A stretch of 64,000 nucleotides of DNA from Mobula hypostoma (lineage: Eukaryota), in the NCBI RefSeq assembly GCF_963921235.1, contig NC_086108.1:35280001-35344000 (forward strand), given 5' to 3'. Shown in pieces: positions 6,440 to 61,586 of this stretch. Position 1 is the stretch's first letter; each line of letters opens with the position of its first letter. Under the pieces are notes generated by a model. That model did no database searches. It was not told the DNA's origin and saw only the letters and a list, made by a program, of their open reading frames with translations. Made by a program: the position numbers and the translations under genes.

Positions 6440-6620
6440 TTGTACTCCTTCCCACCTTCTTAATTTGGCTTCTATCTCCTTCCTTCCCAGTCCTGATGAA
6501 GGTTCTCAGCCCAAAACGTTGACTGTTTATTTCCCTCCATAGATGCTGAGACTAGCTGAGTTCCTCTGTTATTTTGTGTGGGTTGCTCCAGATTTCCAGC
6601 ACCTGCAGAATCTCTTGTGT
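6440..6620 (+). mobile_element. Penelope terminal-repeat fragment with a degenerate hammerhead motif (6488-6525)
   Basis: cagtcCTGATGAaggttctcagcccAAAAcgttgactg followed by the family's agatgctg...ctgagttcctc...ttccagcacctgcaga tail. Confidence 0.8.
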
Positions 6621-6799
6621 TTATGCTTTTTCTGGAATCTGACTTGCATAACCCTCTCTTCCAACAAATATTTGGGTTTGGGATTGCAAGTGCATGCATT
6701 TAAAACAGCAAGGTACCAGAATTAAGAGTAAAGGTTTAAGCTGACAGTCTCCAAACCTGCACTGTGGGAGTGCTAGAGATGCAATATTTTGTTAGACGA

Positions 6800-7025
6800 G
6801 ATTTGTAATGCCAGGACAATATATTAAATAGCAATGGTAGAGTTATCCTGTTCAATTGACTGCCTATCAATATCACTAAAACAGATGGCCTGGTCATCAC
6901 CACACTGCTCTTTGTGGGAGCCTGCCCTTTACAAATTGACTGCTTACAATGCACACATGAAGAATACTTCCTGAATTGACAAGTACTAGCTGATGTCCTG
7001 ATGTCATACAGGTGCAAGTCTTTCA
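6800..7025 (+). mobile_element. Ancient Deu-domain SINE relic (SacSINE1/AmnSINE-like)
   Basis: aaaacagatggcctggtcatcaccacactgctctttgtgggagcctgcc...aaattgactgc...gatgtcctga...gcaagtcttt resembles the Deu-SINE 3' region, from recall. Confidence 0.55.
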
Positions 7026-8099
7026 TTCTCACTTTCTGGCAACGTTGAGTTTTGAGGTACCAGGAGTCCAAGGACCAGAAGGTGAGTAAAACTTTGTCAC
7101 GATGGGCAAATAGGACGAAGTGGAGGAGCAGAGTTTCAAAGCTAAACAGGTCCTTGGTTTGACAGTTAGTGCTGTCTTCTCACGGCAGAGACAGAAGTAC
7201 AAATCTCCACTCTGCTCCCTCTGAGACGGAGAGGAAAGCCTTGCAAAAGTTTACTGCTGCAAGCTCATTGGAGTGAGCATTCTCATCCCTGCGATGAAAT
7301 CATTTCATGGCCTGATCTAAACCCCTCCCTGCTGTAAGTGGGTTGAATGCCAATAGTGGTCGGATCATACTTAATTGAAATTTCTATGCCCCTAAAAGGT
7401 AGAAAGGCCTGCCAAGAATTGCAGTCAGAGCTATTTTAGGTGAGATGAAAGCGGGTGACTAATGCTTTTGGAACTGCTCACAGCAAAGGAATGAAACATT
7501 TTTAGTTTAGTAGGAACTGCAGGAAAATTTGGTGGGAAAAGATAATTTCCTGTGTGTATACATTTAACACAAACTGAACGTGGTTCGAAATGCAAAGTAC
7601 AGATTTGCAACTCAACTCAATTATGCTGATCTCCTTTCACATACTGATTTGCATATGTGCATTGCTCCTGGTAATGCAGAATCTGACACTCCACCATTTT
7701 AATATTATTATATGCAGCAGTAACTGGATTGGCTCAAACTGATCATCACCGGGGGTGGGGGGATTGATGTGACAAGCAGACTCCTCTACTTTTACACTAT
7801 CACTGAGAAAGTTAAGGCTATTCTTTCAAACCTCAAAATCTTCTGTACATAACTTTTGGAATTTATTTAGCATTAGAAAGAGATTGCAATCAGTGTGGGA
7901 TCAGCAGTTTCAAGCAAACTGACTCTCCCACAAAGCCTAGAATTTAATCTCTACATCCAAGCATATCAGATTTAAAATAATTAAATTTGTACTTTATGAG
8001 TTAAAGTATATATATATTACAAAACAGCCTTGATTACATTCATTTGTCATCAAATCATTCTCCTAAAAACACCAATATTATTTTTGATACTTCCTTAAC

Positions 8100-8560
8100 A
8101 ATGCATCATGAAATGTTTTGAGAGCTTGTTCCATGGGCCCAATACCTCAGTGTTCAGTGACAGCCGGATGCCAGACTCAGTGCTTCTTCCCCACAAATGC
8201 CTAAAGATGGTTGCATTGGGATCCAGTGCACCCTTTAGAACGTACTTGTGCACCTTGGAATGCGCAAGGGCCAGCATTCATAAGTTGGCGTCATCTTTGC
8301 ACTGGAAGACCAATAAGTTTTGGGCAGACCAAAGTAAACCCTTTCACCAAGTTGGTGTCCTTACAATAGCAGTCAATGTTAAAATCAGTAAGCATGTGCT
8401 TTTGTGTGGAAGAGTCTAAGCAGGTGGTAAGACACAGGGCAAGCCAATGTGTCTGTATCATCCGTATCAGAATTTTGCACTTTGCGCTCCTCTGGACCAG
8501 GGAAGAGAACAGCAAAGAGGAGTAAGACAGAACGGTTTGCATCTTTATAATACTTCTCTC
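8100..8560 (-). mobile_element. Tx1-like (L1 group) LINE ORF2 C-terminal relic
   Basis: Minus translation LLWSAQNLLVFQCK...LAHSKVHKYVLKGAL...WG, with stops and frameshifts, matches the end of Tx1-type ORF2. Confidence 0.7.
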
Positions 8561-9065
8561 AATCCTGAGACATTTTGAAATGAAGTTTTCATTGTAAAAT
8601 AAGAACTAAACTTCACCCCCCAAAAATAGAAATATTAATTCATCAATAATTATTTTTTAAGTGAGTTAAACAAATCAAAAGTATTGACCAGAGGACAAAG
8701 AAACTTGTTTGTTTTTTTTGAAATAGTGCTTTGGGATCTTGATGCAATCTAACGTAACATAATGTTACATTGGGCAGATCATCACCCCTTCAGTACTGCA
8801 CTGAAGTATCAGTCCCCAGTCGAGTGCTTCATTCTCTGAGGTGAGGCAAGGATACACAAGGTAATGAAACAGTAGTCACAGGTGGCTGATGGGAGATTAG
8901 AGAGGAGGCATTATAGAACATAGAACTGGACAGTACTGGACAGGCCATTCAGCCCACAATGCTGTGCTGACCTCGATGACAATATATATTAAATATCCTC
9001 CTGTGTATTATCTATATCCCTCCAGTCCCTTCATATTAACGTATCTATCTAAAAGCCTCTTAAAC

Positions 9066-11445: not shown

Positions 11446-11449
11446 CGTT

Positions 11450-12400
11450 CAAAGATTTTTAGTGCATGTTTGTTTTTAGGTTCTGGAGTTCAATAAAACC
11501 TGTTACAGGTTTCATTAAACATAAAACACCCGACTTTGTTTTATTTACGAAAACCTACATTGGCGACCCCGATGCTCTTGGACAATTCCAGAGTTATTGA
11601 ACATGTTGGCCAACACAGTCGCCTTGAAACTGCCAGAGTTTGGGGAGCAAAATGCCATCATGTGGTTTGTACAAGCCAAGGCCCAGTTCACTCTGCGAGC
11701 AATCACCGTCGATGACACCAAATTCTACTACGTGGTAGCATCGCTTGGAAACTTCGTGGCTGTGAGAATGGTGAGTCTGTTTGAACAGCCGCCTGAACAT
11801 GATAAATACCGATCACTGAAAGCTCACCTTTTACAGACTTATCGACTATCAGAATCTGAGCACACCACGCATTTTCTCTCCTTACCTGGTCTTGGCAATG
11901 CTAAACCTTCAGAGCTAAAGGACCACTTTCTGTCTCTCCTAGGAAATCACCATTCTTATTTGATTTTTAAAGAACTCTTCATGCAGCAAATGGCTGATTA
12001 AGTTGGCATAACCCTCACTAATGCACCCCTGAAGCACTATAAGGTGCTTGCTAAAATTACTGATTGTCTACTCTCAGCTAGGCAACGGTGCATTATTCTT
12101 CCTCCTTTCTCGACCTCAATAAGCATAGTCAGCAAGATCCCTGACATACTGATTTCCACACCTGTGAAACGGATAATGCTGGGCCTGTGTTTTACCATAA
12201 TTGCTTTGGTATGAACATGAGGAAGTGCCGACCACTTTGCAGCTTCAACAGTGCCAGCATGCCAGCGTATTGGGGCGTCAAAGGTCTGTGAACACTGTGG
12301 ATTCCAGCTGCTGGGTCGTCTACTGTTCATTACGAATAACCTTTCAGGACGACGCTTTCTGTGTACCACAGTTGTGCAAGTGAACATTCTGCTCATCATT
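11450..12400 (+). mobile_element. Gypsy LTR retrotransposon 5' remnant: LTR end, tRNA-Trp-type PBS, gag, start of protease
   Basis: LTR ends ...CTACA at 11559, followed by PBS TGGCGACCCCGATG (11561-11574). Gag reads LKLPEF..WFVQAKAQF..TKFYYVVASL, then a CFYH..FG...KC knuckle and the RRFL protease start. Confidence 0.85.
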
Positions 12401-16600: not shown

Positions 16601-17855
16601 TCATCATCTCTAATGGCAACGTCAAGATGGATCTTAGTAAGGCTCAGGCAGTCAGAGATTGGCCATGATCATCCAATGTGAAACAAGTCCAACAATTCCT
16701 GGGATTTGCCAACTTTTACTGCAAGTTCATCAGAAAGCAGCTCAGTGGCGGAATCTGCTGACAGCACTAACCAAGAGATCTACGGGCCCTTTTGTTTGGA
16801 CTACTGAAGCAGAGGCTGCCTTTACAGAGCTCAAGCAGCAGTTCACGACAGCTCCCATTTCGGTTGCACCTAACCTGGACCTTCCCTTCATTGTGGAAGT
16901 GGGTGTCTCGGACATCGGAGTGGGTGCAGTGTTGTTCATGAATCGCAAAAAGTTGGCTTGCAAGTACAGCAGGTTATTAAGAAGGCAAAAGGAATGTTGG
17001 CCTTTTTTGCTAGAAGGATTGAATTCAAGATCAGGGAGGTCATGGTGCAAACATACAGGGTACTGGTGAGGCCGCACCTGGAGTACTGTTTGCAGTTCTG
17101 GTCTCCATACTTGAGGAATGATATTCCTCTTGGCTTTGGAGGCAGTGCAGAGCTGGTTCACCAGGTTGATTCCAGGGATGAAGGGGTTAACCTATGAAGA
17201 GAGATTGAATTGCTTGGGACTATACTCTCTGGAATTCAGAAGAATGAGAGGGGATCTTATAGAAACATACAAAATTTTGAAAGGGATAGATAAGATAGAA
17301 GTAGGAAAGTTGTTTCCATTGGTAGGTGAGACTAGAACTAGGGGACATTGCCTCAAGATTCAGGGAAGAAGAGGAGAAACTTTTTCCCAGAGAGTGGTGA
17401 ATCTGTGGAATTCTCTGCCCAGGGAAACAGTTGAGACTTCCTCACTAACTATATTTAAGAAACAGTTAGATAGGTTTTTACATAGTAAGGGAATTAAGGG
17501 TTATGGGGAAAAGTCAGGTAGATGGAGCTGAGGTTACGGCCAGATCAGCCATGATGTTATTGAATGGTGGGGTAGGCTTGATGGGCCAGATGGCCTACTC
17601 ATGCTCTTATTTCTTATGGTCTTATGTTCTTATGTGTCAACGGACATCTTCAGACAATAAACTGCACCATGTGTGTTCTTCTCCAGGTGGCTATCCCCGG
17701 CAGAGGTGAACTACGACATCAGAAATAAAGAGCTACTCGCGATCAAGTTGGCTCTGGAGGAATGGCGTCACTAGTTTGAGGGGCCAAGAACCCTTTTACC
17801 TTATGGACATTCCACAAGAACCTGGCTTTTATTCAGGAGGCCAAGAGATTGAACA
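13686..17855 (+). mobile_element. Gypsy 'B' (Ty3/sushi-like, PEG10/RTL-type gag): 5' LTR 13686-13993, gag, protease, RT, RNase H; decayed and 3'-truncated
   Basis: TGTTAC...ATCACA LTR. Gag reads VAFTISLPTGKALAWA, ESGWN..AL, CYYCGEAGHLLAGC. RT reads YRGLNCITVKNHYPLP and YLNN (from YLDD). RNase H reads SDIGVGAVL and [21 protein letters not shown]. Confidence 0.9.
16935..17634 (+). mobile_element. CR1 LINE 3' end nested in the Gypsy B RNase H
   Basis: LVRPHLEYCLQFWSP, RRMRGDLIETYK, FSQRVVNLWNSLP; (CTTATGTT)n-like tail. Confidence 0.92.
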
Positions 17856-42120: not shown

Positions 42121-42532
42121 TAACTTCCCTCATGGACTTCAGCTTCATGGGCTATTCTTCCCTCACCCTTCACTGTGAATTAACCGAACTGGCATTTGTT
42201 GTTGGTGGGATCTTGCTTTGTGTATTAAAATACCTGCTATACTCCCAAGTAATCTCTTGCAGGTGAATCCAGATGAAAGGCCACTACCACTGTATTTAAG
42301 GCAAGTTTAAGCAACAGGTAAAGGAACAAATTGTTATAGAATGTTGGAAAGAGAACCTACAGAGAAAGATGGTAGAAAGTGAACACCAGCAGAACCATGT
42401 TCTTTCCATTTCTCATTGACAAAATATTAAGATGTACCTTAATAGAGGAATAGTATGCTCTAAAGTTGAACGACATTCTGTAATTTTAAAAAGCCACTGC
42501 ATTGCTAGATCACAATTAACTATCTTCTACAC

Positions 42533-44848: not shown

Positions 44849-45164
44849 TTCTACACTGTGGTTACAAGGAACTTTATCCATTCATGATGGTTTCCCTATC
44901 CAAGGAGAATTTCAAAATATGACAATTACTATTAAGAACTCATACAGTGCTTGTGCATTCTTCATGACCACAGTGAAAGTTCAACTTTACTGGTTAAGCC
45001 CTTTCTGCTAGTTTGCAATATCACAGTGACAGTATGACACTTAAGATTTGATGAGGAGTTGGAGAGCACATTTTAAAAAAAAATTATTGTGCATTGTTAC
45101 ATCTTGGTGTGAAGTCTGAGCTGCCTGCAGTTAGGTAATCACAGTCAGCTCTCGTGGAGAGAAA

Positions 45165-45255
45165 CACACACAAAGTGCTGGAGGAACTCAGCAGGTCAGG
45201 CAGAATCTATGGAAATGAATAAACAGTCGACAGTTCGGGAAGAGACTCTTCTTCT
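45165..45255 (-). mobile_element. Penelope terminal-repeat fragment, truncated within the hammerhead motif
   Basis: acacacaaagtgctggaggaactcagcaggtcaggcag..ctatggaaatgaataaacagtcgac. Confidence 0.8.
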
Positions 45256-45615
45256 TGTGTAGAGGTGTGAGATTGAGCATGGGCTCTAAGTGTCGGATGA
45301 ATACACCCAATGGTCAAGAGAAAGGTGGTGCTTCCCCCAAAAAACTTAAATCACCTTTAATCATCTCCTAAGCATGGGTGGTGCACACGGGACAGTTTTC
45401 ATATTTTTAAAACATTTATCTGTGCCACTGTTACATCTTGGTGTGAAGTCTGAGCTACATGCCGTGAGGTAATCAAAGCTGCATGGTACATAATCCCTAG
45501 TGTATCACTCTACCAGATGCCCATTGGTATTAACAGACAGGGTTTTATTTCAAGCAACACACATCAAAGTTGCTGGTGAACGCAGCAGGCCAGGCAGCAT
45601 CTCTAGGAAGAGGTG

Positions 45616-45653
45616 CAGTCGACGTTTCAGGCCAAGACCCTTCGTCAGGACTA
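45616..45653 (-). ncRNA. Minimal type I hammerhead ribozyme motif (intact core)
   Basis: Minus strand reads UAGUC-CUGACGA-AGGGUCUUGGCCU-GAAA-CGUC-GACUG. Confidence 0.75.
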
Positions 45654-46014
45654 ACTGAAGGAAGAGTTAGTAAGAGATTTGAAAGTGGGAGGGGGAGGGG
45701 GAGATCCAAAATGATAGGAGAAGACAGGAGGGGGAGGGATGGAGCCAAGAGCTGGACAGGTGATTGGCAAAAGGGATATGAGAGGATCATGGGACAGGAG
45801 GCCCGGGGAGAAAGACAAGGGGGCGGGGAACCCAGACGATGGGCAAGAGGTATATTCAGAGTGACAGAGGGAGAAAAAGGAGAATAAGAGAAAGAATGTG
45901 TGTATAAAAATAAATAACGGATGGGATACAAGGGGGAGGTGGGGCATTAGCGGAAGTCAGAGAAGTCAATGTTCATGCCATCAGGTTGGAGGCTACCCAG
46001 ACGGAATATAAGGT

Positions 46015-46152
46015 GTTTAGATCCTCTCTTCGACGGGAGTTCAGTGAAACCATCTCTCACTGCACCCCATCTGTAATTTCTTCGTTTAGATCCTCTCTTC
46101 AACGGGAGTTCAGTGAAACCATCTCTCACTGCTCCCCATCTGTAATTTCTTC
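46015..46152 (+). repeat. 69-bp tandem duplication (2 copies)
   Basis: GTTTAGATCCTCTC...GTAATTTCTTC at 46015-46083 and 46084-46152, with 2 mismatches. Confidence 0.95.
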
Positions 46153-46449
46153 GGCTCTTCAACTTTTCGACCACATTTTGACTCAGACTCGCTATCACAA
46201 CACATTCTTTCTCTCACTCGCCTTTTTCTCCCTCTGTCCCTCTGACTACACCCCTTTCCCATCCTCTGGGTTCCCCCTCCCAACTTGTCTTTCTCTCTGG
46301 GCCTCCTGTCCAATGATCCTCTCATACCCCCTTTGCCAATCACCTGTCCAGCTCTTGGCTCCATCCCTCCCCCTCCTGTCTTCTCCTATCATTTTGGATC
46401 TCCCCCTCCCCCTCCCACTTTCAAATCTCTTGCTAACTCTTCCTTCAGT

Positions 46450-46487
46450 TAGTCCTGACGAAGGGTCTCGGCCTGAAACGTCGACTG
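46450..46487 (+). ncRNA. Minimal type I hammerhead ribozyme motif (intact core; predicted cleavage after 46482)
   Basis: UAGUC-CUGACGA-AGGGUCUCGGCCU-GAAA-CGUC-GACUG: stem I AGUC/GACU, stem II AGG/CCU, palindromic ACGU stem III. Confidence 0.78.
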
Positions 46488-47224
46488 TACCTCTTCCTAT
46501 AGATGCTGCCTGGCCTGCTGCGTTCACCAGCAACTTTGATGTGTGTTGCTTGAATTTCCAGCATCTGCAGAATTCCTGTTGTTAGGGTTTTATTTCAATC
46601 TGGGTAAGAGGACTGGTTTGGAATCACAGGAAGATGTGAGTTCTGGAGAGGTGGCACCTACTCTGGCCCTCTGTCTCCCTTTTTTTTCAATGAACACTGA
46701 AGCGTATGGTCAGACGGAGTGAGGATTCATTCCTATCAAGGGCCAAGCCAGTGGCAGAAGAGGCTTTGCACTCCAGCAAAGTATAACTAGATCTCCTGCT
46801 GAAATGTCACTGTCTTCAGGCAATTTATGGGTGCCTGCCCCAAGCATCTTGTGAGCTGCGGGCAGGCAGCAAGAGGGGAGTTCAGTTTGACTCGCAGCAC
46901 CTGAGCTGGTGAAGCTTTGGCCTTGCTGGACCATTTCATGGTCCCCAAACTAGCAACCCAAACCCTTTGCTCATTTCTTCACTCCACTCTCAGCAGGTCA
47001 GGTGGTTGTACCTCTGAAGAGAGTGGGACAATGTACAGATCCTGGGGCAAAGTGATCCCCAAACCCTCTGTTAGCATCTGCAGAAAGAAAACATGGAATA
47101 AGTGGGCAGAGGCCCTGTAGCCCACCTCCTTACTGAAAGATAAAAACAGTTACTGCGGCCTTACTATGCATGTTGGGACTAAAGAGCAACATGCCTTGAA
47201 CTGGTGGAGAACAGGAGAGAAGGA

Positions 47225-47460
47225 ACAAAGGCTGGAATAGGCCATTCAGCCTCTGGAGTGCGCTCAGCTGTTCAATAAGTTCCCATTAACTGCTAAGTTC
47301 CACAGAGATAAAAGCTCTCCGTTTCCATAACTTTAAAGGTAAGGAGCTCTGGAGGCTCATGACCCTTTGAGAGAAGAAATTCCTCCTCACATCCTCTCCA
47401 CTTCAATGAGCGAGCCCTTATACTAAAATAAAAGTACTGGTTCTGGACTTTTGCATGAGA
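47225..47460 (-). mobile_element. Old CR1 3' end relic
   Basis: ggaataggccattcagcc...gctgttcaataag; gagaagaaattcctcctcacatc. Confidence 0.55.
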
Positions 47461-48512
47461 GGAGACATTGTCAGATTCAGATGCATTATTTATCTCATGT
47501 ACATCGAAGCATACAGTGCGCTGGGGAAAACCCACGATTGTCACCACACGCTCCTGCGCCAGCATAGCATGTTCACCTTATCCACAGGCAATGACAACAA
47601 GAACAGGTCAACAGTAACAACAATAACAGCAAAACACTCCTCGTACCTCCCTCCCACCCACTAGTCCTCTAGCCCCCAGGACAGGCAAGCTCTGGTCTCC
47701 AGCTTCCAGTGGACTCAGACTCGAGGACGTTGGACCTTCAACTTCTCTAGCAGATTTGCCGAGACTCACAGACCCAGGTCTCGGCATCCCCTTGGCAGTC
47801 CTCTCAGAATACTTTTAACTTCGAGAGGATTGCTTCTACCTACTTCGAACTCCACTGGGTAAGTGCCCTTCGTCACGAGCCAATTCTTGCATTCTAGAAA
47901 TTAAGCAAGAGAGCCTTCTCTGAACTGGTGCAGGAGACTGTGGACAGAAAGGTGTGAGAGCGGATAGGGGAGTAACGCAATGGGTCCAAAGGAATAGTGC
48001 AGGGTAACAGCAGAACTTTCTGTAGCACTTATTGTCTGAAAGGTGACAAACCACTTGCTTTTAAATCAAATCAAATCATTATTCTCACAGTTTGACAAAC
48101 TGAAGCATTCTTCCTCTTTGATAGGTAGTGCTCTCTGTCGGGTCTCCAGCATTCACACTGTTCTGCGATTCGGAAGCTGAGATCATCATGTGCACTTGCA
48201 GTATAACATTGTAAAGGGGTTGATTGGAGAACACACTGCTGTTCCTCAATCAGCTTCATTTGAACGTGAGGATAAATAAAACACAGGTATGAATAGGCAT
48301 CTATTTGGAAACACAGTCCCTTGCTTTGTGTTGAGAAGTGCAGCCACTCAATGCTTGGTTCATAGTTTTCATATTGTCACATCATGCCATTCTGCCCATT
48401 GAGTCTATGGTGGCTCTTCCATCATTCCCAGCAACGCCACACCCCCACTTCATGCCATGCAGGAATGTCCCTCATGCAGTACAAGCCCCATTCTTTTGCT
48501 CTTCCCGTACAT

Positions 48513-48593
48513 CAGGGGGTTCCCAACTTTTTTTATGCCATGGACTAATACCATTAAGCAAAGGGTGTGAGGGCCCCAGGTTGGGAACCCCTG
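48513..48593. mobile_element. Tiny hAT (Charlie-type) MITE inside a V-SINE relic (~48380-48760, minus)
   Basis: TIRs CAGGGGGTTCCCAAC / GTTGGGAACCCCTG; no clean TSD. Confidence 0.8.
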
Positions 48594-48774
48594 ACCTTCG
48601 TGATAGAGGCAATGCAGCAACCAATTAATCTGAAGAATACTGGATCTTTGGGATGAGGAAGGAAACTGGAGCACTGAAGATGGGGCCACAGGAAGAATGT
48701 CTAAATGCTTCGGAGATAACACTGGAGGTCAGAACTGAGTTCTGGCCGCTGCTATGCCACTCGTTGTGTTTGGC

Positions 48775-49085
48775 CTGATGGTAGTGCAGCGACACAGCTA
48801 ACAGAGCGGCTATCAGACGGCTTCAGACACCCAGGCGCGCTCTGCATGGAGTTTGTGTGACCACAAGTATTTCCTTTGAGTGCTCCAGTCTCCCACCTCA
48901 TTCCACAGAAGTGCTAATTGGCCACTGTAACTTACAGCTCAGGTGTGGGAGCAAGTTGTAGGATTGAGGGAAAGTTGGTGAGAGCGTGGGGAGAATAAAA
49001 TGGGATTAATGTAGGATTGATGCAAATGGGTGCTTAATGCCTGGCATGGACTCCATAGGCCAAAGCACCTAGTTCCATGCTGAAT
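48775..49085 (+). mobile_element. HE1-like V-SINE, degenerate
   Basis: tctgcatggagtttg..tgacc...gagtgctccagtctccc, ctaattggccactgtaa, gggccaaag-like tail. Confidence 0.6.
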
Positions 49086-49837
49086 AATTCTGCAACTTTA
49101 TGGCAGAGCAAGTGGCTGACACTAACTGAGAGATGGATAGTTTAACTAGTCCACTGCTCAGCCTGACTGACCCAACTAGAGCATCAGGAGGTTTCAGCCA
49201 GAGTCAGAGTCAGGTTTAGTACCACTGGCATTAAAAACAGGCACATCAAAATTATGAGGTAGCCAGGTCCCAGGACTAAACTCCAGCCTGGGTTAACCTA
49301 GGTGAGCTCAGAGATGGCCCCATGCTGAGCAGCAATCTTATTATTTAACTCCTTTTCTCTTGGTTTTAAAAGCAGAACTGCACAAACACTTTTTTTTTTG
49401 CTGTGAAGAAGGCTGCTGATTGATAACCTTCCTTGCAAAGGATTAGCATTATAAATAGGACCACTGGGGACTGCACATGGACAGAAGTTCTCACAGCCAG
49501 AGTCTGAGAGGCCACGGAGGCAGCAGATTATTTGTGTCTTCCATACAACGTCAGTATTGGGGATGAATGGACTATAAACCTAGAAGTGATCCTATTGATC
49601 CAACGCACACATGGATTACTTGCAGCCAGAGCCGGGAAGTAGTGCAGTCATGTATGGAAACAGGCCATTTGGCCTTCTAAATCCATGCTGACCAACAAGC
49701 ACCCATTCGTATGTATTCCATATTATTCTCCCATATTCCCATCTATTCCCACCCCCACCATCATCCCCTCCGCTAACACCGGCTTGATTGAAGCAGAAGT
49801 TACGGCAGAGTGGATCCCCACAGGACTAAAACATTGG

Positions 49838-50575
49838 GTGGCATCCGTTAGTCTTGCGAGACCATGGATCTGCGCCCAGAAAGTCTTGCTTCAGTCTGTG
49901 TTGGTAGAGAAGTGTCTGTTGTGGCTGTAGAGGCCCACACGGGAGTGACAGTCTCGGCTGCAGCGACTGCACTTGTAGGCGCTGTCCTCTAGTGTTGTCT
50001 TGGTGCTGTTTTTTCAGCGAGTGCGCTTTTCTTCAGCAGCAAGCCCCGGCTTCTATTCTCCTCTTTTTAGACCTCTGCGTAATTCCAGCCTCCAGCGAAA
50101 GCGATTGCTTGATATGTCCTCCCACCTCTCGACGTTCATGTTCAGTGACTTCATGTCTCTCTTGCAGACATCTTTGAAACGAAGATGGGGCCGCCCTTGT
50201 GCTCTCTTGCCGGAGGCCAGTTCCCCATACAGCAGGTCTTTCGGGATCCTCCCGTCTGACATGCGGTGAACGTGGCCCAGCCAGCAGAGATGGCATTGTT
50301 GGAGCAGGGTGACGAGGCTGGGTATCTGGGTACCTGGGCGCGGGCCAGGAACTCATTGTTGGTGACTCGGTCAACCCACTTGATGACCAGGATGAGTCTC
50401 AGGCTGCGAAGGTGGAAGGCGTTGAGATGCCACTCTTGTTTGGAGCAGAGGCTCCAGGTCTCGCTGCTGTAAAGCAGTGTGCTGAGGACGCAGGCCCTGT
50501 AGACTGCAACCTTGGTGTGTGTCATCAGCTTTCTGTTCTCCCAGACTCTCTTTGTCAGCCTGGTGAATGTTGAGC
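49838..50575 (-). mobile_element. RTE (BovB-like) LINE 3' end
   Basis: TKVAVYRACVLSTLLYSSETW, FHLRSLR, DGRIPKDLLYGEL..GKRAQGRPHLRFKD and a terminal C2H2 finger YKCSRCSRDCHSRVGLYSH; ~50-bp 3'UTR. Confidence 0.93.
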
Positions 50576-50734
50576 ACAACATATTCACACATTTAATAAT
50601 CAGAAAAGTTAAAAACTGCGGTGGGGGGAGGTGGTGGATGTAAAGTTTAGGCTTCATTAGCCCCAATCAGTCAGGAGACAAAATTCCTTTTTAAATGTGC
50701 TGATACAGTTGTTTTTAAATCATATCACTGCTCT

Positions 50735-50910
50735 TTACTTCACGCCCTCCCCTGTCCTGATTTCAACTATCACCTGCCACCTTGTACTTCTTCCTCTGCT
50801 ACCCCGCCCCTCCCCTCACCTTCTTCCTGGCCTGGCCTGCTGAGTTCCTCCTGCATTTTCTCTGTGTTGCTTTGGATTTCCAACATCTGCAGACTTTCTC
50901 CTGCTTGTGA
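50735..50910 (+). mobile_element. Penelope terminal-repeat fragment (hammerhead segment deleted)
   Basis: ctatcacctgcc...cctggcctgctgagttcctcc.gcatttt..tgtgttgct..gatttccaacatctgcaga. Confidence 0.75.
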
Positions 50911-51584
50911 TTTACTGCTCGTCTTTCCTCATATATAATAACAGAGAGAGAACAAATCTCTTCCTGGATAATATGAAGTCTGGTGTGGGAGTTGTTTCTC
51001 TTTCAAAGATAAACTTGCTTCCTTGCCCTGTGTTTTGTCAAGAATATTAATGCTTCATGAATCATTCTTCAAAGGGCAGCTAGAATCTTTTCTGATTCTG
51101 TACTTGGCTGGTTACTCAGGCAAACTTTTATAGATGCAGGCAAAAATCTTTATTGTTGGAAGTTAATATTAAATGCAGTTCTTAACACATAAAACACCTG
51201 ACTTTCAGAAAAATGCATGACGGTGGGAAATTACCTTGATGTAATAAAGCTGCACTGACACAGCATGAGCGCTGTATCACTAACACAATTAATTGGAAGT
51301 GATGATCAGCTGGTATTGCCATCTCCAGTAATGAAATGGCTAAAGTAAGCATATCACTACTTGTTTTTCTTCATGTCCAAATATGAAACAAGAACATACC
51401 TTTAATGTAAGTCAAAAACTTTGTCAATGGAGTTGGAAATTCCTTGTCACCAACCCTCATAAGTTTCAAGGCTATCTCTCAGGGAGATCTGTGTTATATG
51501 ACTTGGTTTTATTTGAGCAGCTTTCTCAGAAAAAAAAGAAAATAAAATCCTGTGTCACTGCTGAAAATCTAGAATACAAACATG

Positions 51585-52100
51585 TTTAAATGGCTCTGTT
51601 TATTATCGGAGAATGTATACAACGTACAACCTTGCTTTCACAGACATCCACAAAAAACAGACCCCCAAAAGAATGAATGACTGAAAAACATCAGAACTCC
51701 AAAGCCCCCTCTGCCCCTCCTCCGCGCAAGCAGCAGCAAGCGTCAATGTGTCAACCTCCCCTCCCCCTTACCCACTTCAGCAAAACGCGTCATTGCCCAC
51801 CGCCCACCAAGCAACAGCAAAGTGCCCCAGGGGGACTGTGATCTGCAGCCAGCAAGAACTATTGTTTACCCTTCAGTTCAACGTGCCACAGGCTCTCTCC
51901 CTCACTAACAAGGGACAGTGAGGTATACTGTTTCTATTTTACAGTCTCCTGTCTCACTTTTATTCTGACCCGAGAATCGACAGGAAACTCTCCCACCATC
52001 AGGAGAAAGAGAGAGACTACAGAGAGCTCCGTCCATATATTCGCCACTGTGAAATCCTGATGTTCTGCCTCCCGTGACACGTCACTCGGCAACACCAGCT
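51585..52100 (-). mobile_element. Non-autonomous element of the same family as 17954-18735
   Basis: gagaatgtatacaa...catccac..aaacaga.ccccaaaagaatgaatgac...aagcaacagcaaag aligns to the reverse complement of 18460-18730. Confidence 0.7.
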
Positions 52101-52114
52101 TGGAATTGGTCACC

Positions 52115-52885
52115 TGATGGTTTTGTAGCCAAGTTTGCTGAAAATGCTAAGATAAGTGGAGGGCCAGGTAGTGTTGAGAATGCAGGGAGCCTGCAGAGGG
52201 ACTTTGACAGATTAGGAGAATGGGCAAAGAAGTGGCAAATGGAATACAGTGTCAGGAAGTGCACATTGGTCGAAGGAATAATGGTCTTCTAAACGGAGTA
52301 AATTCAGAAATCGGAGATGCAAAGGGACTTGTGATTCCTTGTCCAGGATTCCCTAAAGTTTAACTCGTTGGTTGAGTCGGTGGTTAGGAAGGCAAATGCA
52401 ATGCTAGCATTCATTTCCAGAGGACTAGAATATAAAAGCAAGGATGTGATACTGAGGCTTTATAAGCCATTGGTTAGACCACACTTAAAGTATTGTGAAC
52501 AGTTTGGGGCCCCTTGTCCAAGAGCAGATGTGTTGGCACTGGTGAGGGTCCTGAGGAGGTTCACCAGAATCATCCCAGGAATTAAAGGGTTAATGCATCA
52601 GGAGTACTTTGTGGCTTTGGGCCTGTACTTGCAGGAGTTTAGGAGACTCAAGAGGATCTCATTGAAACCTATTGAATAGTGAAAGGCTCGAAAGAGTGGG
52701 CATGCTGAGGATGTTTCAGACAATGGGAGGGTCAAGGACCAAAGGACACGGCCTCAGAATAGAAGAATATCCCTTTAGAACAGAGATGAGGAGGAATTTC
52801 TTTAGCCAGGGGACGGTGAATCTGTGGAATTCATTGCCATAGATGGCTGTGGAGGCCAAGGAATTGGGTATATTTAAAGCAGAGC
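52115..52885 (+). mobile_element. CR1 LINE RT C-terminal part
   Basis: LQRDFDRLGEWAKKWQMEY, KANAMLAFISRG, LVRPHLKYC. Confidence 0.9.
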
Positions 52886-52949
52886 TTTAGGACATACTGG
52901 GAGCAGCATGGTCAGATCTAAAAATAAGGTGACAACTTGGCAACACAGG

Positions 52950-53645
52950 ACTTTCATTAAACAGCAGAAGTAATATGCCCACACTATCAAATATAAGTTC
53001 AGTATTTCTGTCTCATCTCTTTCTGAATGATGGTAAATAAGTAGACAGCTACTTGGAGAAGGAGGCTCCAAGGACATCTCCATCTTCAGTTTTGGCCAGC
53101 ATGTTGAATTCTAAAGACTCGACTGAAGCATTCACAACCGTGATCAGCCAGAAATGCTGAGTAGGCGATCCACCTCAACATCCCCCTGAGATTCCACCCA
53201 ATTGAATTAACTTAGTACAGCAAAATCCATGGGGACAAACATAACCCTAACTGTAGTACTGAAAACTTTTACTCCAGAATCAGCTGTCCCTTTGTCCACG
53301 TTGTTCCAGTACAGCTCCACTAATGGTATCTACTCAACATTGTGGAAAGTTGCTCAGAAATGCCCTACTTCACAAAAAGCGGACCAATTCCAAACAGGCA
53401 ATTTTCTACTCAATCAGCCTGCTCTCAAACATCAGCAAAATGGTGGAAGCTGCTGTTGATGTTGCTTTGTTGCTTTCTTAGTTGCCAATACTGATACTGA
53501 GCTTGGTTTTGCCAGAAGCACCCAGCTCCAGACCTCATTGTACCCTTGACTGAAACATGAATTACAGAGGTGAAATGAGAGTGACTGATGTTGACAACAC
53601 AGGAGAAGTTAACTAAGTACCTTGGCAATGCTGAAATCAATGGTG
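52950..53645 (+). mobile_element. Old L2/Crack-like LINE RT N-terminal relic
   Basis: VLKTFTPE.AVPLS.LFQYS...GIY...WKVAQ..P..K. Confidence 0.6.
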
Positions 53646-54568
53646 TCAGTAATTTCATTTTATGTCTGCTTTTCCCTGAGTCTGGTCTGAACCCATGCAG
53701 ATGGATAAAACCAGGTAAGACACACAGAGTAGCACAACTCAGAATTCAATCTATTAAAAACCCTAACAAATGCCACAAATAATATTACACAACATTACCA
53801 AAGATAGGATATACAACGTTACAAACAGTTGTACTTTAACAAGACTTCTGTAAGTTCTACCATATATATTTTAACCCATGGATACAACAGCTGGCCTTTC
53901 TCTCCCAACAGGGGGTCAACCTTGCTTGTAGTTGCCTTGTAAGGTACGCTTTTGTCTCTAATTATTACTTATTCTCTAACTTTAGATAATTTTAGATAGA
54001 ACTCATCATGTCAAGCATCAATATTATTCTACCTAGCACTTCATGCATGGAGTCCATTTATTTGTGCCTTTAACTGCAGCTGTTTTTCTTTCTGTCTCTC
54101 TTTCACACACACACACGCACACACACCTTCCTCTCTCTTAACACTTATAGAATCCCACTCATGATAATTTGATGAACACAACCTTCCCTTTTGATTGCAC
54201 CACCTCCCATCCTGTTTACTCAAAAAAAGGATATTTAACACCCAGTGATAACACAAAAAAAGGTGATTTGATGGGAGGAGGTTTCAGTATAGTTTATCAT
54301 CAGACTCAAATTTGTTTAGCAAGTGTTTCCACCAATATTCACGCCAGTAGATACCTGTTATGGATGGAGCTAAACACATTGATGTATATCTGTTTTTTTG
54401 TGCATAGTTTGGCTGACATGTTACGCAAGTGAAACGTTTGTCCTTGAAGTAAACTTCAGATAAAATGCTTCAGGGCTACCTGCCCAGTTCTGCATGACAG
54501 ATTTAATTCTGCAGTAGGAATTTCAGCCAACCTTTTGGTCAATTTTTGCTTCACTGTCAGTTGCGCTA

Positions 54569-54585
54569 CTATATATATATATATA

Positions 54586-54641
<56 letters not shown>
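54569..54641. repeat. (TA)n(CA)n microsatellite
   Basis: Direct reading of the sequence. Confidence 0.98.
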
Positions 54642-54644
<3 letters not shown>

Positions 54645-54689
54645 TATATTCCCTCAATAAATAAATTAAATAAAAAAATAAAATTTCAG

Positions 54690-55350
54690 CAGAGCAGAAG
54701 AGTTGGTTATTGACTTCAGGAAGGGGATCCTGCTTAGATCAATGGTGCTAAGGTCAAGAGGTTTGAGAACTTTATATTCCTAGGAGTGCATATCAGCAAT
54801 AGCCTGTTTTGGTCCAACTACATTGATGCCGCAGCCAAGAAAGCTCACTAGAACCTCTACTTCCTCCATTCCAATAAATTTGGAATGTCCTCATTGATCC
54901 TGACCAATTTTCATCAGGGCACCATAGAAAGCATCCTTTCTGGATACATCACAGGTTGGTATGGCAACTGTTCTGCTCATGACCACAAGAATGCCCATAC
55001 AGACATTTTCTCCTCTCCTCCTCCCATTGAGTACAAGTTAGAAAGCCTAAGCATACATGCCTCAAATTTCAAGGATAGCTTCTGCCCCACTGTTATAAGG
55101 CTATTGAATGGTTCTCTGGTACAATAAGATAGGTTCTTGACACTACCTTGTTATGAGCCGCACCTTACTGTCGACTTGCTCTGCACTTTCTCTGAAACGG
55201 TAACACTTTATTCTGCACTCTGTTATTATTCCATTTTTTACTACCTTAATGTGCTGTTGTACTGAATTGATCCGTATGAACAGTAAGCAAGGCAAGTTTT
55301 TCTCTCTACCTCAGTTCATGCAACAATAATAAACCAATTTACTAATTTAT
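54690..55350 (+). mobile_element. Rex-type LINE 3' end
   Basis: ELVIDFRK, TIESILSGYITGWYGNC, FKDSFCPTVIRLLN; 3'UTR with aataaaccaatt. Confidence 0.8.
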
Positions 55351-55654
55351 GCCGCATAAAGGAATAAGGTTCTAGTTGTTGGAGGTTAATAATTCCAGGC
55401 CCAGGATGATATCCGTATGAAACCAGCTGCCAATGTGGCAGCTAAGTGACATGAGCTTTGTTTATTGCAGTGGTCACTGGGAACAAAGGAATGGATGGTT
55501 GGTCATAAGAATGAAAGCTGTGGAGAAAGATTAAAGAAAGAAAGATCAGCTTTATTTGAAATATGTACACTGAAGCATACAGTGAAATGGATTGTTTGTG
55601 TCAAATCACATCAGCGGGGACAGCTTACATGTCGTCTGAATCTTTCACTTCTGG

Positions 55655-56010
55655 TGGAGAGAATATTGACTGGTTCATCATGGCCTGGTATGGAAACACC
55701 AATGTCCTTGAATGGAAAAGCCTATAAAAAGTAAGAGTTACAACCCAGTCTATCACGGGTAAAGCTCTCCCCACCACTAAGCTTCACTCAACTTCACTTA
55801 CCCCATCACTGAACTGTTCCTGAAAACTACAGACTCACTTTTAAGGACTGTTCATCTCATGCTCTTGATATTTATTGTTTATTTATTTATTCTTCTTATT
55901 ATTATTGTTTTCCTTTTGTATTTACACAGTTTGTTTCATTTTGCACATTGGTTATTTGTCCTTCCTGATGTGTACAGTCTTTCACTGATTCTACTGTGTT
56001 TCTTTGACTT
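55655..56010 (+). mobile_element. Rex-type LINE 3' relic
   Basis: ERILTG..ITAWYG-like segment plus a T-rich 3'UTR. Confidence 0.55.
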
Positions 56011-56083
56011 GGGTGGGTGAGAAGGAGCCTCCCTATAGCAGATGAAGAGTCCTTGAAAGTGAACCCATAGGAGACGCCTCCTC

Positions 56084-56356
56084 ATGACAGACATATTATA
56101 CCAAAACTCTCTGCCTCAGGTAATTAATCTGTATGCCTCACCTGTGCAGAGTAAGCGGCTGGCCATCCTCGAGCTGTTCCCACCACTGTTGACAATGTTT
56201 CAGATGGTCATTCTAGTCGGTGACTTCAACTGTATCATCAATGTGACTGGACGATCCATTTGTGTCGACAACAGGCTGGACTGCACCTCCATCTTCTTGA
56301 TGGAAACAGTTAACATAGCCAAGCTGCGTGACGCCTTCAGCACCCCTGAAGGGTGA
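56084..56356 (+). mobile_element. Tx1-like APE endonuclease fragment
   Basis: VINLYASP...RLAIL..L..LL...VILVGDFNCII...LRDAF. Confidence 0.8.
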
Positions 56357-56359
56357 GCA

Positions 56360-57165
56360 TTCAATATCAATATCTTGGAAGCTCTTTCCTGAGCACAACA
56401 ATCAATGCAATCTCAAAGAAAGCATGTCAGTAGTCCCTCCTCATTAGGAGTTTGAGACTGGCACCAAAAGTTCCTATAACTCTCTACAGATGTGCAGTGA
56501 AGGGCGTTCTGACGGGTTGCATCAGTGCCTGGTGTTGACCCTCCGATGCACAGGATCACAAGCAGCTGCAGACTCAAGCCAGATATAACATGGACACAAA
56601 CCTCCCCACCATAATGGGTGTCTTCAAGAGGCGGTGCCTCGAGAAGGTGGCAGCTATCACTAAAGCTCCTCACTATTAGGGACATGCCTTCTTCTTGTTA
56701 GTACCAATGGGAAAGAGGTACCAGAGAAGACCCACACTCAATGATTCAGAAACAGCTTCTTCCCCTCCCCTCCATCAGATTTCTAAACTATCAGTGAACC
56801 TATGAACACTACGCTGTTAATCCATTTTTGCTCTATTTATTTATTTTGTAATTTATTGTAATTTTATGCTTTTGCACTGAACTACTACTGCGAAACAGCA
56901 AATTTCACATGACACACACAAAAATTGCTGGTGGACGCAGCAGGCCATGCAGCATCTATAGGAAGAGGTACAGTCGACGAAGGGTCCCGGCCCGAAACGT
57001 CGACTGTACCTCTTCCTATAGGTGCTGCCTGGCCTGCTGCGTTCACCAGCATTTTTTGTGTGTGTGTTGCTTGAATTTCCAGCATCTGCAGATTTCCTCG
57101 TATCTGCGTTTTTAAATTTCACGTGATCTAAGTCAGTGATAATAGAGTTGATTCAGATCCTGAAT
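56360..57165 (+). mobile_element. Rex-type LINE 3' end hosting a hairpin insertion
   Basis: Decayed NFYRCAV..VLTGCISAW and LPMGKRY. The 3'UTR aaatttca(c)..tgataata..gattcagat is split by the insertion. Confidence 0.75.
56900..57126. mobile_element. ~200-bp young hairpin element from a Penelope terminal repeat, with a 13-bp TSD
   Basis: Arms 56913-56979 and 56998-57064 are near-perfect inverted repeats around the loop AAGGGTCCCGGCCCGAAA. TSD AAATTTCACATGA / AAATTTCACGTGA. Confidence 0.92.
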
Positions 57166-58121
57166 TGCAGTGTAAGATGTGAGCAGGGATCACAGCGGAA
57201 TATAGAACTGTCAGAGAAGAGGGAAGCAATAATACCACCAGTGGGTGTGTGGATAGCAGGTTGCTGGAAGGGACAGGAAGAGAAGTTGGGCAATTAGCAG
57301 TTTAGTAGGAACAAAGTCAAGTGGATTTTATAACAAGATGGGTTTGAATCAAACAAGACAGAAAATGGAAGTGGTAATCCAGAGAAAGCTGTGCACCCGA
57401 GGTTATAGAACATGAGAAGATAAGGGAGGGAGAGAAGCCACGGTGACAACTCAAGAGGTGGACACCCACTTTGAGACCGAACAAAGGCCTTTGAGGCTTT
57501 TTGATTTGATGAAGCAAAGGGTAGAGGAAGGGCAGGAAGATAAGTCCAAAGGAGATATTTTGTGGAGGCAGATATCAGGATAAAGCAAAGCACTTCAGCA
57601 GTAAAAACAAACTGATGGATTACCTCTGTTAGATACGTAGGTTATGACCAATGAAAGAAATGGCTGGAATCACTTAGCACTTAAGTGCAGGGGTGTTTAT
57701 TAGGTGTGTCAAAATTCAAATTTACAAAAGTTAGTGAAAATAGTGAAAAGAAAACTGCCACTATTTACAAAAAGGTATCTGCCAGAAAACACCAAATAGC
57801 TCCACACTTATGTATATTCTTGTCCAGTGTAAACTCCTGGCAGCCTTTATCTCTCTCTCTCTCTCCTACTGAGGGTAAAGCATCCCAGTTCTTTAGACAC
57901 AAGGACATACCACCTTTAATGACCCTCAAAGTTAATTTAAGACTACAGGTGAATTAGAATATGATGCACCCCACAATGTAGTTACAATCATATTACAACA
58001 TAAATGGAAGTATCTACCTTAAATATGGGATACAAACAACATATACGCCCTTACACATCCTCATTACTAAAGCAGTGGAATATTCCACCATGTATGGCGG
58101 GAACATACACCATGTATGTTG

Positions 58122-58714: not shown

Positions 58715-58791
58715 TTATCATGTCATTTCTGTAGCTTTTGATCTGCTAAATTGATTTAGCAGATCAAAAGCTACAGAAAAAGACATGATAA
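58715..58791. repeat. 77-bp near-perfect palindrome
   Basis: 26-bp perfect inner arms (58726-58751 / 58754-58779) around a 2-nt loop, plus a further 10-bp outer stem. Confidence 0.95.
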
Positions 58792-59061
58792 ATAGAAAGT
58801 CCAAGGCTGAGCAATTTGAAATTTGAAGCTATAAGACTATGAGATGTGGGAGCAGCTTTACACCACTCGGCCCATTGAGCCTGCTCCTCCATGACTGAGC
58901 CTTTCTTCCCCTCCTCAGCCCCATTCCCCAGCCTTCTCTCTGTAACCTTTGATGCCATGGCCAGTCAAGAACTTATCAAGCTCTGCCTTAAATTCACCCA
59001 AATGACCTGGCCTCCACAGCTGCCTGTAGTAACAAATTTCACAAATTCACCACTGTATACT

Positions 59062-59985
59062 GAGTCCCCACCTTTACTCCCTGTATGCCCATGACTGTGT
59101 CGCTACCCACAGCTCTAATCTACTAATTAAATTTGCGGATGACAGTACACTGATTGGCCTTATCTCAAACAATAATGAGGTGGCCTACAGGGAAGAAGTC
59201 ATCTCTCTGACACAGTGGTGTCAAGTAAACAACCTCTCCCTCAATGTCGCAAAAACAAAGGAGCTGGTTGTGGATGACAGGAGGAATGGAGATGCACTAA
59301 TCCCTATTGACATCAATGGATCTGGGGTTGAGAGGGTAAACATCTTCAAATTCCTTGGCATCCACATCACCGAGGATCTCACGTGGTCTGTGTACACCAG
59401 CTGTGTGGTGAAAAAGGCACAACAGCACCTCTTTCACCTCAAACGGTTGAGGAAGTTTGGTATGGGCCCCCCAATCCTAAGAGCTTTCTACAGGGGCATA
59501 ATTGAGAGCATCTTGACTGGCTGCATCACTGCCTGGTATGGGAACTGTACCCCACTTAATCGCAGGACTCTACAGAGAGTGATGCAGACAGCCCAGTGCA
59601 TCTGCAGTTGTGACCTTCCCATGATTCAGAACATTTGCAGAGACAGGTGTGTAAAAAGGGCCCAAAGGATCATTGGGGAGATGATTCACCCCAACCACAA
59701 TTTATTCCAACTACTACCATCTGGGTAACAGTACTGAGGCCTAAAAGCCAGGACCAACAGGCTCCGGTACAGCTTCTTCCACCAGGCCGTCAGACTGATT
59801 AATTCACGTTGATTTGAGTGTATTTCTATGTTACATTGACTCTTCTATTTACTATAAATTATTATAAATTACTATGTGCATATTGCACATTTAACCAGAC
59901 TTAATGTAAAGATTTTTACTTCTCATGTATGTGAGGGATGTAAGAAATAAAGTCAATTCAATTCAATTCATTTCAATTCATTCAA
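59062..59985 (+). mobile_element. Rex1/Babar LINE 3' part (same family as 32405-34868)
   Basis: FADD.TLIG, NNLSLNVAKTKEL, FKFLGIHI, LFQLLPSG; (CAATT)n tail. Confidence 0.92.
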
Positions 59986-60535
59986 TACCCTCTGGCTAAA
60001 GAAAGGTCTCCACATCTCTGTTTTAAATGGTGCCCCTCTATCCTGAGGCTGTGCCCTCTTGTCCTAGACTCCCCCACCATGGGAAACGTCCTTGCCACAT
60101 CTACTCTGTCTAAGCCTTTCAACATTCAAAAGGTTTCAAAACTCTCCACTTCATGTAATTAATCTGTATGCCTCACCTGTGTGGAGTGAGCGGCTGGCCA
60201 TCCTCGAGCAGTTCACCTAAATTCCAGCCAGTACAGGCCCAAAACCATCAATGTTCTCCATAGGATAACCTTTTTATTCCCGGAATCATTCTTGTGAACC
60301 TCCTCTGAATCCTCCCCATGGCAGCACATCTTTTCTTAGATAAGGAGCCTAAAACTGCTCTCAATACTCAAGGTGAGGCCTCACCAGTGCCTTATAAAGC
60401 CTCAGCAAGATGTCCCTGCTCTTATGTTCTAGACCTCTTGAAATGAAAGCTAACATTGCATTTGCCTTCCTCAGCACTGACTCTACCTGCAAGTTAACCT
60501 TTAGCGTATTCAGCACAAGGACTGCCAAGTCCCTT

Positions 60536-61586
60536 GTGCTTCGGCCTTCTTTGGCCCTCACCCCATCCTCCCGTCACCACAACAGGGACAGAGTTCCCCT
60601 TGTCCTCACCTACCACCACACCAGCCTCTGGATCCAGCACATTATCCTCCGCAACTTCCGCCACCTTCAACAGGACCCCACCACTAAGCACATCTTTCCC
60701 TCTCTACCCCTCTCCACTTTCCATAGGGATTGTTCCCTTCGTGATTCCCTGGTCCACACGTCCCTCCCCACCAATCTCCCACCCGACATTTACCCCTGTA
60801 AGCGTAAGTGCTACACCTGTCCCTACACCTCCTCTCTTGCCACTATTCAGGGCCCCAAACAGTCCTTCCAGGTGAGGCAACACTCCACTTGTGAGTCTGT
60901 TGGGGTCATCTATTGCATCCGGTGCTCCTGGTGCGGCCTCCTCTACATTGGTGATACCCGACACAGATTGGGGGACTGCTTCGTCAAGCACCTCCACTCT
61001 GTCCACCACAACGGACTGGATCTCCTGGTAGCCACCCACTTCAACTCTGCTTCACATTCCCATTCGGATTTGTCCATACATGGCCTCCTCTACTGCCATG
61101 ATGAGGCTAAACTCAGGTTGGAGGGGCAACACCTCATATGCCATCTAGGTAGTCTCCAGCCCCTTGGCATGAACATAGAATTCTCCAACTTCCGGTAATT
61201 CCCTCCCCCTCACTTCCCCCAACCCAGATTCACTCTGGCCCCTCCTCCAGCTGGCTATCACCTCTCTCATGGCTCTGCCTCCTTCTACTACCCATCGTAC
61301 TTTCCTCTATTCCTTCTTCACCTTTCCTGCCTATCCCCTCCCTGCTTCCCCTCCCCCACCCCTTGATCTTTCCCCTTACTGGTTTCTCACCTGGCACCTA
61401 CCAGCCTTTTCCTTCCCACCCTCCCCCCACCTTCTTTATAGGGCCCCTGCCCTCTCCCTCTTCAGTCCTGACGAAGAGTCTCGGCCCTAAACGTTAACTG
61501 TTCATTTCCACGGATGCTGCCCGATCTGCTGAGTTCCTCCAGCGTGTTGCTTTGACCCCAGCGTCTGCAGAGTATTTTGTGTTTAT
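60536..61586 (+). mobile_element. Penelope-like 3' end (uninterrupted GIY-YIG frame + terminal repeat) with a 16-bp TSD
   Basis: RVPLVLTYH, C..C.TC, VIYCIRCSWCGLLYIGDT..RL..F..H, LGSLQPLGMN; degenerate hammerhead at 61463-61500. TSD GACT(G/C)CCAAGTCCCTT at 60520-60535 and 61587-61602. Confidence 0.93.

Follow-up and report, generated by a model that had tools for sequence, protein, structure and literature searches.

What ten hammerhead ribozyme motifs are doing in a single 64-kb stretch of the Mobula hypostoma genome (contig NC_086108.1, positions 35,280,001 to 35,344,000; hereafter the window) is the question that this locus raises. The first-pass annotation had assigned all of them to Penelope terminal repeats, supposed that the genome might hold a very large number of such motifs, and proposed that these could cleave pre-mRNA within introns or give rise to small or circular RNAs. 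Our analysis makes it probable that these are minimal type I hammerheads of a Neptune-type Penelope-like element, that the scattered copies decay neutrally with likely no host cutting that matters, and that the motif, as we would predict, works only in the tandem transcripts of the element.

All ten listed motifs are present and on the strands given. With the hammerhead numbering and core definition taken from PMC4209133 and PMC3088659 (C3 U4 G5 A6 N7 G8 A9, G12 A13 A14 A15.1, U16.1 H17), only two of the ten keep every core base, 46451-46486 (+) and 45652-45617 (-), as had been reported, and the cut predicted after 46482 is correctly placed, following GUC and preceding GACUG. Some details of the list needed amendment. 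The motifs entered at 28768, 45225 and 45616 are real, although these numbers mark the 3' ends of minus-strand motifs; the motif at 56971 is present, but what it has lost, at a fold-back junction, is CT rather than CTGA; and three core-less terminal-repeat pieces (3177-3092, 56979-56901 and 50830-50914) had been overlooked. A terminal-repeat profile made from 56 seed loci from searches, one of them the window's own 61463 copy, marks 13 segments in the window, ten of which overlap a hammerhead and nine of which cover C3 to position 17, while two retain all 11 core bases and H17. All motifs of the window align with the 3' portion of an element unit of about 3.5 kb, and their placement in Penelope terminal repeats therefore holds. 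The anatomy, together with a frame for reverse transcriptase (RT) and a GIY-YIG endonuclease, likewise supports their description as minimal type I hammerheads with a palindromic ACGU helix III. The stable, loop-closed helix III of canonical type I hammerheads is lacking, there being no loop 3.

The window frame 60398-61198 ends in a GIY-YIG-type domain, and as a query it drew 370,881 first-look candidates from the genome, of which 144 were scored. One scored locus yielded a natural frame of 684 amino acids with matches to RVT_1 at E 4.3e-06 and to GIY-YIG at E 2.6e-04, each score being slightly below the Pfam curated cut-offs. The window's endonuclease piece alone is not recognised by Pfam, and the 684-residue frame has no match among PDB sequences at E<=0.1. 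This frame carries DKG (ADKGG) and YIDD motifs, a CX3CX2C linker (CKRKCYTC) and a CCHH pattern, the last with CIRC inside the GIY-YIG core and His residues after it. The portions of 10.1101/2021.04.23.441226 covered here, from which the DKG, CCHH and linker definitions are taken, give a CX2-5CxxC linker between RT and endonuclease as the mark of Neptune and describe Nematis with a linker motif as well; our linker would thus point to Neptune or Nematis rather than to Penelope/Poseidon, and we call the element Neptune-type. There is no Neptune-named protein among the 120 matches listed, in which the closest named proteins come from rays and sharks (a Hypanus sabinus model at 81% identity, Chiloscyllium punctatum at 70%). 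Two ray gene isoforms, P0005 and P0074, named as kinase-domain and chitinase-domain proteins, also include long stretches with 75-81% identity to the open reading frame (ORF) of the element; these are either exonised intronic copies or gene-model errors.

Seven loci, picked from 41 matches, were fetched, and in six of them a same-strand motif pair about 3.5 kb apart lies around ORF sequence. Two (L300 and L301) are tandems with three same-strand motifs 3,513-3,516 nt apart and units 99.4-99.8% identical; measured from motif to motif, the unit is 3,513-3,516 nt long in L300-L303 and L305 and 3,501 nt long in L306 (pseudo-long-terminal-repeat layout). An open frame of 1043 codons is found in L300 and L303. 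Since the long open frame starts about 58 nt downstream of the cut, an RNA running from cut to cut would contain the whole ORF. These near-identical same-strand arrays are likely the working context of the motif. At L304:1171-1590, two motifs on the same strand, the first of them with G8>A, are separated by 385 nt and enclose no ORF match; this short, internally deleted unit resembles a retrozyme of the type without long terminal repeats (non-LTR). It is the only one among the loci read, and the window holds no short non-coding head-to-tail tandem array of retrozyme type.

Both search methods were run against controls. In 664 kb (the window, 200 kb of flanks and 400 kb of evenly spaced samples) the profile gives 113 segments and none in the reversed sequence, and a structure descriptor gives 15 matches, none in the reversed sequence and none in each of five shuffles. 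The first-pass annotation had named a lack of core conservation and stem covariation in the family, together with a lack of cleavage, as what would refute its proposal; at the family level, conservation and covariation are both present. Single-protein scans found no relatives in viral contigs or metagenome contigs, but an alignment-based protein scan did, and gave 80 metagenome loci encoding relatives of the element. The descriptor matches in 13 of these 80, against zero in the reversed and ten shuffled controls. All 13 foreign motifs have an extra A after A9 and a G10.1-C11.1 pair, neither of which the descriptor requires; in M. hypostoma the extra A between 9 and 10.1 is present in 47 of 47 young copies. 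Twelve of the 13 have no loop 3, and one has AGCU.

Without any pairing requirement, a bare core lies 95-138 nt past the ORF end in eight of the 20 eligible foreign loci (those reaching at least 150 nt past the end of the ORF) and in none of the other 12, with both controls again at zero. In relatives chosen in this way, 20 of 21 helix I cells pair, using base pairs that differ from those of the Mobula hypostoma genome. As helix I covaries across animal relatives, the motif is under selection in the element. In an alignment of four of our motifs and nine foreign ones, the rows of which were preselected for pairing, 95.4% of cells pair, compared with 16-35% for slid partners, and two-sided changes are seen in eight of the ten pairs. 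Some foreign relatives (L184:240-280 and L185:1261-1300) have a 2-nt palindromic loop 3 (GAAACCGGUC), and in L148 helix III is AGCU in place of ACGU.

The dispersed copies present a different picture. In 1.664 Mb we found 338 segments, 198 of which span the core; 176 were classed by their downstream sequence, and the remaining 22 were too short and were dropped. The 129 old copies have non-CpG changes at 119 of 1151 core positions and at 145 of 1388 positions of the downstream block, so the core rate is the flank rate and the dispersed copies decay like neutral DNA. In young and old copies alike, the majority base is the core base at all 11 core positions. The lesion G8>A is present in four of the 47 young copies, with two to seven of 47 changed at the other CpG bases.

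The ends of the copies bear on the templates from which they were made. The start was placed for 59 young copies. In 20 it lies over 45 nt upstream of the cut, and in 21 it lies 29-45 nt upstream, where helix I has its 5' edge; eight others start inside the core, four within 4 nt of the cut and six beyond it. The cut site is thus spanned in 41 of the 59, which start upstream of the core. These positions suggest that most reverse-transcribed templates were uncut at the site or had been re-joined across it. The notion that copy starts record cleavage at the cut site was rejected for the bulk of copies, only four of 59 beginning there. The 3' ends of young copies form two groups about 35 nt apart. 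A head-to-head partner is found within 1.5 kb for 34 of the 59; scaled up from 1.664 Mb, this amounts to tens of thousands of inverted repeats, which would form long double-stranded RNA in read-through transcripts and are possible editing substrates.

The two core-intact motifs of the window belong to such a pair, being opposite arms of the one insertion at 45539-46598. The arms are 95% complementary over 280 nt, and the presence of an ORF piece between inverted 3' arms, all within one target duplication, suggests template jumps during a single insertion. Because the two motifs are on opposite strands, they offer no dimer within one RNA. In predicted folds of read-through RNA of either strand the motif is paired with its antisense copy (0.97 and 1.00), and a long hairpin would be expected to mask both. 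In native-context folding elsewhere, helix I and II pair probabilities are about 0 for a G-U copy, and helix II reaches 0.25 for a G-C copy (one copy each, with differing flanks). The proposed release of small or circular RNAs from dispersed copies accordingly gains no support here, with the window's intact pair on opposite strands and predicted to be sequestered.

To see how host genes tolerate these sequences, we considered the strand of copies in 1.0 Mb inside nine spectrin-repeat gene spans. Exon matches served to infer these spans and lay on the sense strand alone. All segments divide into 116 sense and 109 antisense, core-intact copies into 33 and 19, and fully intact copies into 17 and 9 (sense share 0.65, 95% interval 0.44-0.83). 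Strong sense-strand purging is excluded in these nine genes. With no sense depletion, decay at the flank rate and most young copies spanning the cut site, the proposal that dispersed copies cut intronic pre-mRNA is not borne out, and cutting of host RNA by intact copies is likely rare, if it occurs at all. The window showed no host exon in a scan of 148 of the 197 non-repeat frames of at least 55 amino acids and of two of the other longest frames; only transposon-type or unknown-function domains were matched. Contigs of four sequencing runs on 42000-58000 piled on repeats with no interpretable splice pattern and are uninformative on expression and on RNA ends. A splice acceptor just 3' of the motif was considered and dropped, as its AG is missing in several subfamilies. 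Xenopus retrozyme sequences are reported in a preprint to be under-represented in introns, strand analysis not being part of the passages covered here, and we found no literature report of an intron orientation bias of such ribozymes in a search whose coverage excludes most subscription journals.

The supposition of a very large number of motifs proved well founded. A genome-wide exact search for core-intact motifs with a free helix II loop gave 66,422, about 19 per Mb, and one for a 34-letter young-type pattern gave 45,476; the reversed control was zero for each. The 400 kb of evenly spaced samples contain 68 segments, of which 41 cover the core, 18 have it intact and 11 also have intact helices; from these counts, roughly 590,000 segments, 360,000 core-spanning, 160,000 core-intact and 96,000 fully intact would be expected genome-wide, a rough extrapolation from small counts with wide error. 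For comparison, the portions of PMC4209133 covered give about 4,000 minimal motifs in coelacanth and 9,000 in Xenopus tropicalis, and those of the retrozyme sources (PMC7229834; 10.64898/2026.07.22.740005) give 126,247 type I motifs in the 28.21 Gb axolotl genome. The density here is high relative to these published counts, which were obtained by differing methods.

A mechanism in keeping with these observations may be outlined as follows. In tandem RNA, two motifs on the same strand, 3.5 kb from each other, would pair by way of the palindromic ACGU and, judging by the literature, would cut slowly as a dimer, probably helped by the element's own protein. Cleavage would yield a unit-length RNA holding the whole ORF, a processing role likewise suggested by published work, and the solo and inverted copies would be by-products. 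The source for the minimal motifs, in the parts covered, describes the monomer as inactive and the dimer as weak (PMC4209133). The active dimer fold crosses helix I and lies beyond nearest-neighbour cofolding.

Three other explanations have to be set against this one. That the motifs are chance matches or fossil sequence without structural constraint might be thought from the Rfam search, which reports no hammerhead family in the window at E<=1, and from the state of the window's motifs, eight of ten being broken or truncated; but the empty reversed and shuffled controls, the recurrence of features that no search demanded and the pairing far above that of slid partners refute it for the family, and we give it almost no credence. 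A less easily dismissed suggestion is that the motif of the amplifying subfamily no longer cleaves and is kept for another job, such as transcription start, protein binding or a stop to reverse transcription, with G10.1-U11.1 as tolerated drift. U11.1 occurs in 38,871 of the 45,476 exact young-type motifs (85%; C11.1 in 6,605), in all motifs of the tandem arrays read and in both intact window copies, whereas C is the commonest base in old copies and G-C is universal in the foreign motifs; at a frequency far above the CpG decay of 5-9%, U11.1 must have been fixed in the master copy. The parts of PMC3088659 covered term G10.1-C11.1 the most conserved pair outside A15.1-U16.1. The 21 young copies that begin in a 17-nt window at the helix I edge, and not at the cut, would also suit this suggestion, as would the report, in the portions of PMC11167929 covered, that ribozyme mutants have no effect on insertion of an anole element in vitro. 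Weighed against it, all 11 core bases remain the majority base in young and old copies, and the old masters avoided the CpG at N7 yet kept G8. A G-U wobble is still a pair, and a U-U mismatch at 10.1-11.1 is reported from natural hammerheads, U-U being said to retain most activity among mispairs (PMC3088659, in part). We regard loss of cleavage as unlikely.

Very unlikely, in our judgement, is that dispersed intact copies make host pre-mRNA self-cleaving at a large number of sites, by dimerising in cis with nearby copies or in trans with abundant element RNA. The number of core-intact motifs is certainly large, one 140-kb gene span holds six fully intact sense copies, and the palindrome lets any two copies pair. 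However, sense copies are not depleted in the nine genes, inactivating lesions are not in excess of other CpG decay, the ACGU duplex is worth only -1.7 kcal/mol, more than half of young copies have a sequestering head-to-head partner, and the published minimal motifs have little activity. A bolder form of the idea, to which we attach an equally small probability, is that some 100,000 hammerheads remain intact, with half of those in introns lying in sense, and make up a latent cleavage network; the host would tolerate it since the dominant subfamily is attenuated (G10.1-U11.1, a monomer fold without activity) and depends on element protein or RNA as a partner; expression of the element, in the germline or under stress, would then cut host pre-mRNAs in trans at thousands of sites. 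Several points nevertheless count against confining the motif's activity to tandem transcripts of a Neptune-type element with neutrally decaying dispersed copies. In the 47 young copies non-CpG changes are found at 5 of 419 core positions and 16 of 509 downstream positions (p=0.07), and genome-wide there are 2,217 G8>A copies versus 3,622 with C7>T, its CpG partner, a shortfall that could reflect T7 master copies or weak conservation. A same-strand young neighbour lies within 5 kb of 12 of the 59 young copies, making dimers in host transcripts geometrically possible. The strand test covers nine spectrin-repeat genes and 26 fully intact copies and is compatible with mild depletion, and the seven foreign sequences chosen without bias represent about three independent families. 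All readings of cleavage here come from sequence and from nearest-neighbour folding, which takes no account of the tertiary core or of the order of folding during transcription.

Coordinates of the features in the window are collected in the table.

Table. Hammerhead motifs and parts of the Penelope-like element in the 64-kb window
Feature	Position	Strand	Remarks
Decayed motif, old, U4>A, A15.1>C	3174-3209	+	Fold-back centre; partner arm 3177-3092 (-) starts at cut site
Decayed motif, G12>A	6489-6524	+	Within terminal-repeat remnant 6417-6628
Motif with G8>A	25676-25711	+	Copy 25675-25784 begins at helix I 5' edge
Decayed motif, G5>A, U16.1>C	28769-28804	-	3' end of endonuclease remnant 29527-28705
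Decayed motif, G12>A, helix III broken	39711-39746	+	3' end of RT-endonuclease remnant 38258-39804
Old 5'-truncated motif without C3/U4 (truncated before G5), A15.1>C	45225-45254	-	
Single inverted Penelope insertion	45539-46598		15-bp target duplication 45539-45553/46584-46598; minus arm 45549-46017; plus arm 46200-46586
Core-intact minimal hammerhead	45617-45652	-	Inverted arm of the insertion that holds 46451-46486 (+); likewise G10.1-U11.1
Piece of element ORF 5' region	46015-46199	+	Between the arms; 99% identity to young full-length copies; contains a 69-bp tandem duplication
Core-intact minimal hammerhead	46451-46486	+	Helix I AGUC/GACU, CUGACGA, extra A, helix II G10.1-U11.1, GAAACGUC; predicted cut after 46482
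Terminal-repeat 3' fragment without hammerhead	50830-50914	+	
Motif without C3 and U4	56972-57005	+	Junction of fold-back 56901-57111; partner arm 56979-56901 (-) has 3' half only
Penelope ORF, C-terminal part	60554-61198	+	CX3CX2C linker; GIY-YIG-type endonuclease with CCHH pattern
Motif with G12>T	61464-61499	+	3' end of element remnant 60554-61585

The window also contains remnants of other mobile elements (33-1384, 11525-12001, 16641-17069, 41568-42014, 42711-42944 and 59033-59728), with RVT_1 with or without ALKBH8_N, DUF7041, RT_RNaseH_2 and a hAT dimerisation domain. An AT-rich, near-perfect hairpin of about 77 nt at 58715-58791 has weak microRNA-family scores below gathering thresholds and no second copy in the 1.664 Mb sampled.

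The minimal Penelope hammerhead, its genome-wide spread and its opposite-strand pairs have been known since 2014, and the motifs alone are therefore not surprising. Those of metazoan Penelope pseudo-LTRs described by Cervera and De la Pena (PMC4209133, in the main-text parts covered) share with ours the type I wiring, the absence of loop 3, the palindromic 15.2-16.2, the extra base between 9 and 10.1 and the terminal-repeat location; they too are mostly solo copies genome-wide, with opposite-strand pairs 100-700 bp apart, and are known in fish Neptune elements. The differences are in number (at least 66,422 here, against the 4,000 and 9,000 obtained by other methods), in the G10.1-U11.1 of the dominant subfamily in place of a highly conserved G-C, and in the far greater uniformity of the M. 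hypostoma copies, so many of which match one 34-nt pattern. Cartilaginous fish are not named in those main-text parts, although the supplements may list a shark or ray family. On this group, the literature covered, which leaves out most subscription journals, offered only a review mentioning 'shark' once and a retrozyme preprint with one chondrichthyan; the portions seen of a shark-ray genome preprint mention neither Penelope nor ribozymes.

The Poseidon element PAc of Anolis carolinensis (Frangieh et al. 2024, PMC11167929, in the portions covered) is similar in having RT with a C-terminal GIY-YIG, a tandem layout, a terminal-repeat hammerhead, an AT-rich target and an optional 3' tail, to which our two groups of 3' ends correspond. 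Inverted 5'-truncated copies and an optional tail of 30-40 bp are given as hallmarks of Penelope-like elements, and both are seen here, in the head-to-head young copies, the paired 3'-end groups and the window's own inverted unit. PAc, however, belongs to the Penelope/Poseidon clade and is cut 26 nt inside its ORF, while our element has the CX3CX2C linker and a frame that starts after the cut. The PAc ribozyme is described as protein-assisted and not needed for insertion in vitro, with no RNA-seq ends at the cut, and the copy-end pattern here agrees with those findings. Animal non-LTR retrozymes, as presented in the parts of PMC7229834 and the bioRxiv preprint 10.64898/2026.07.22.740005 covered, resemble our motifs in being type I, of very high copy number, dependent on dimers in vertebrates and descended from Penelope terminal repeats; they differ in being short non-coding units in tandem that are expressed as circular RNA, while the window's copies are solo or inverted and derive from an autonomous element.

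Small as it is, the strand test suggests that minimal hammerheads persist intact and unpurged on the sense strand of essential genes in a vertebrate, which fits their low published activity. The near-identical and apparently recent tandem arrays, along with tens of thousands of near-identical copies, make the in vivo role of the Penelope hammerhead directly testable. The fixation of G-U in the most successful subfamily provides a natural comparison by which to ask whether strong cleavage helps or hinders retrotransposition.

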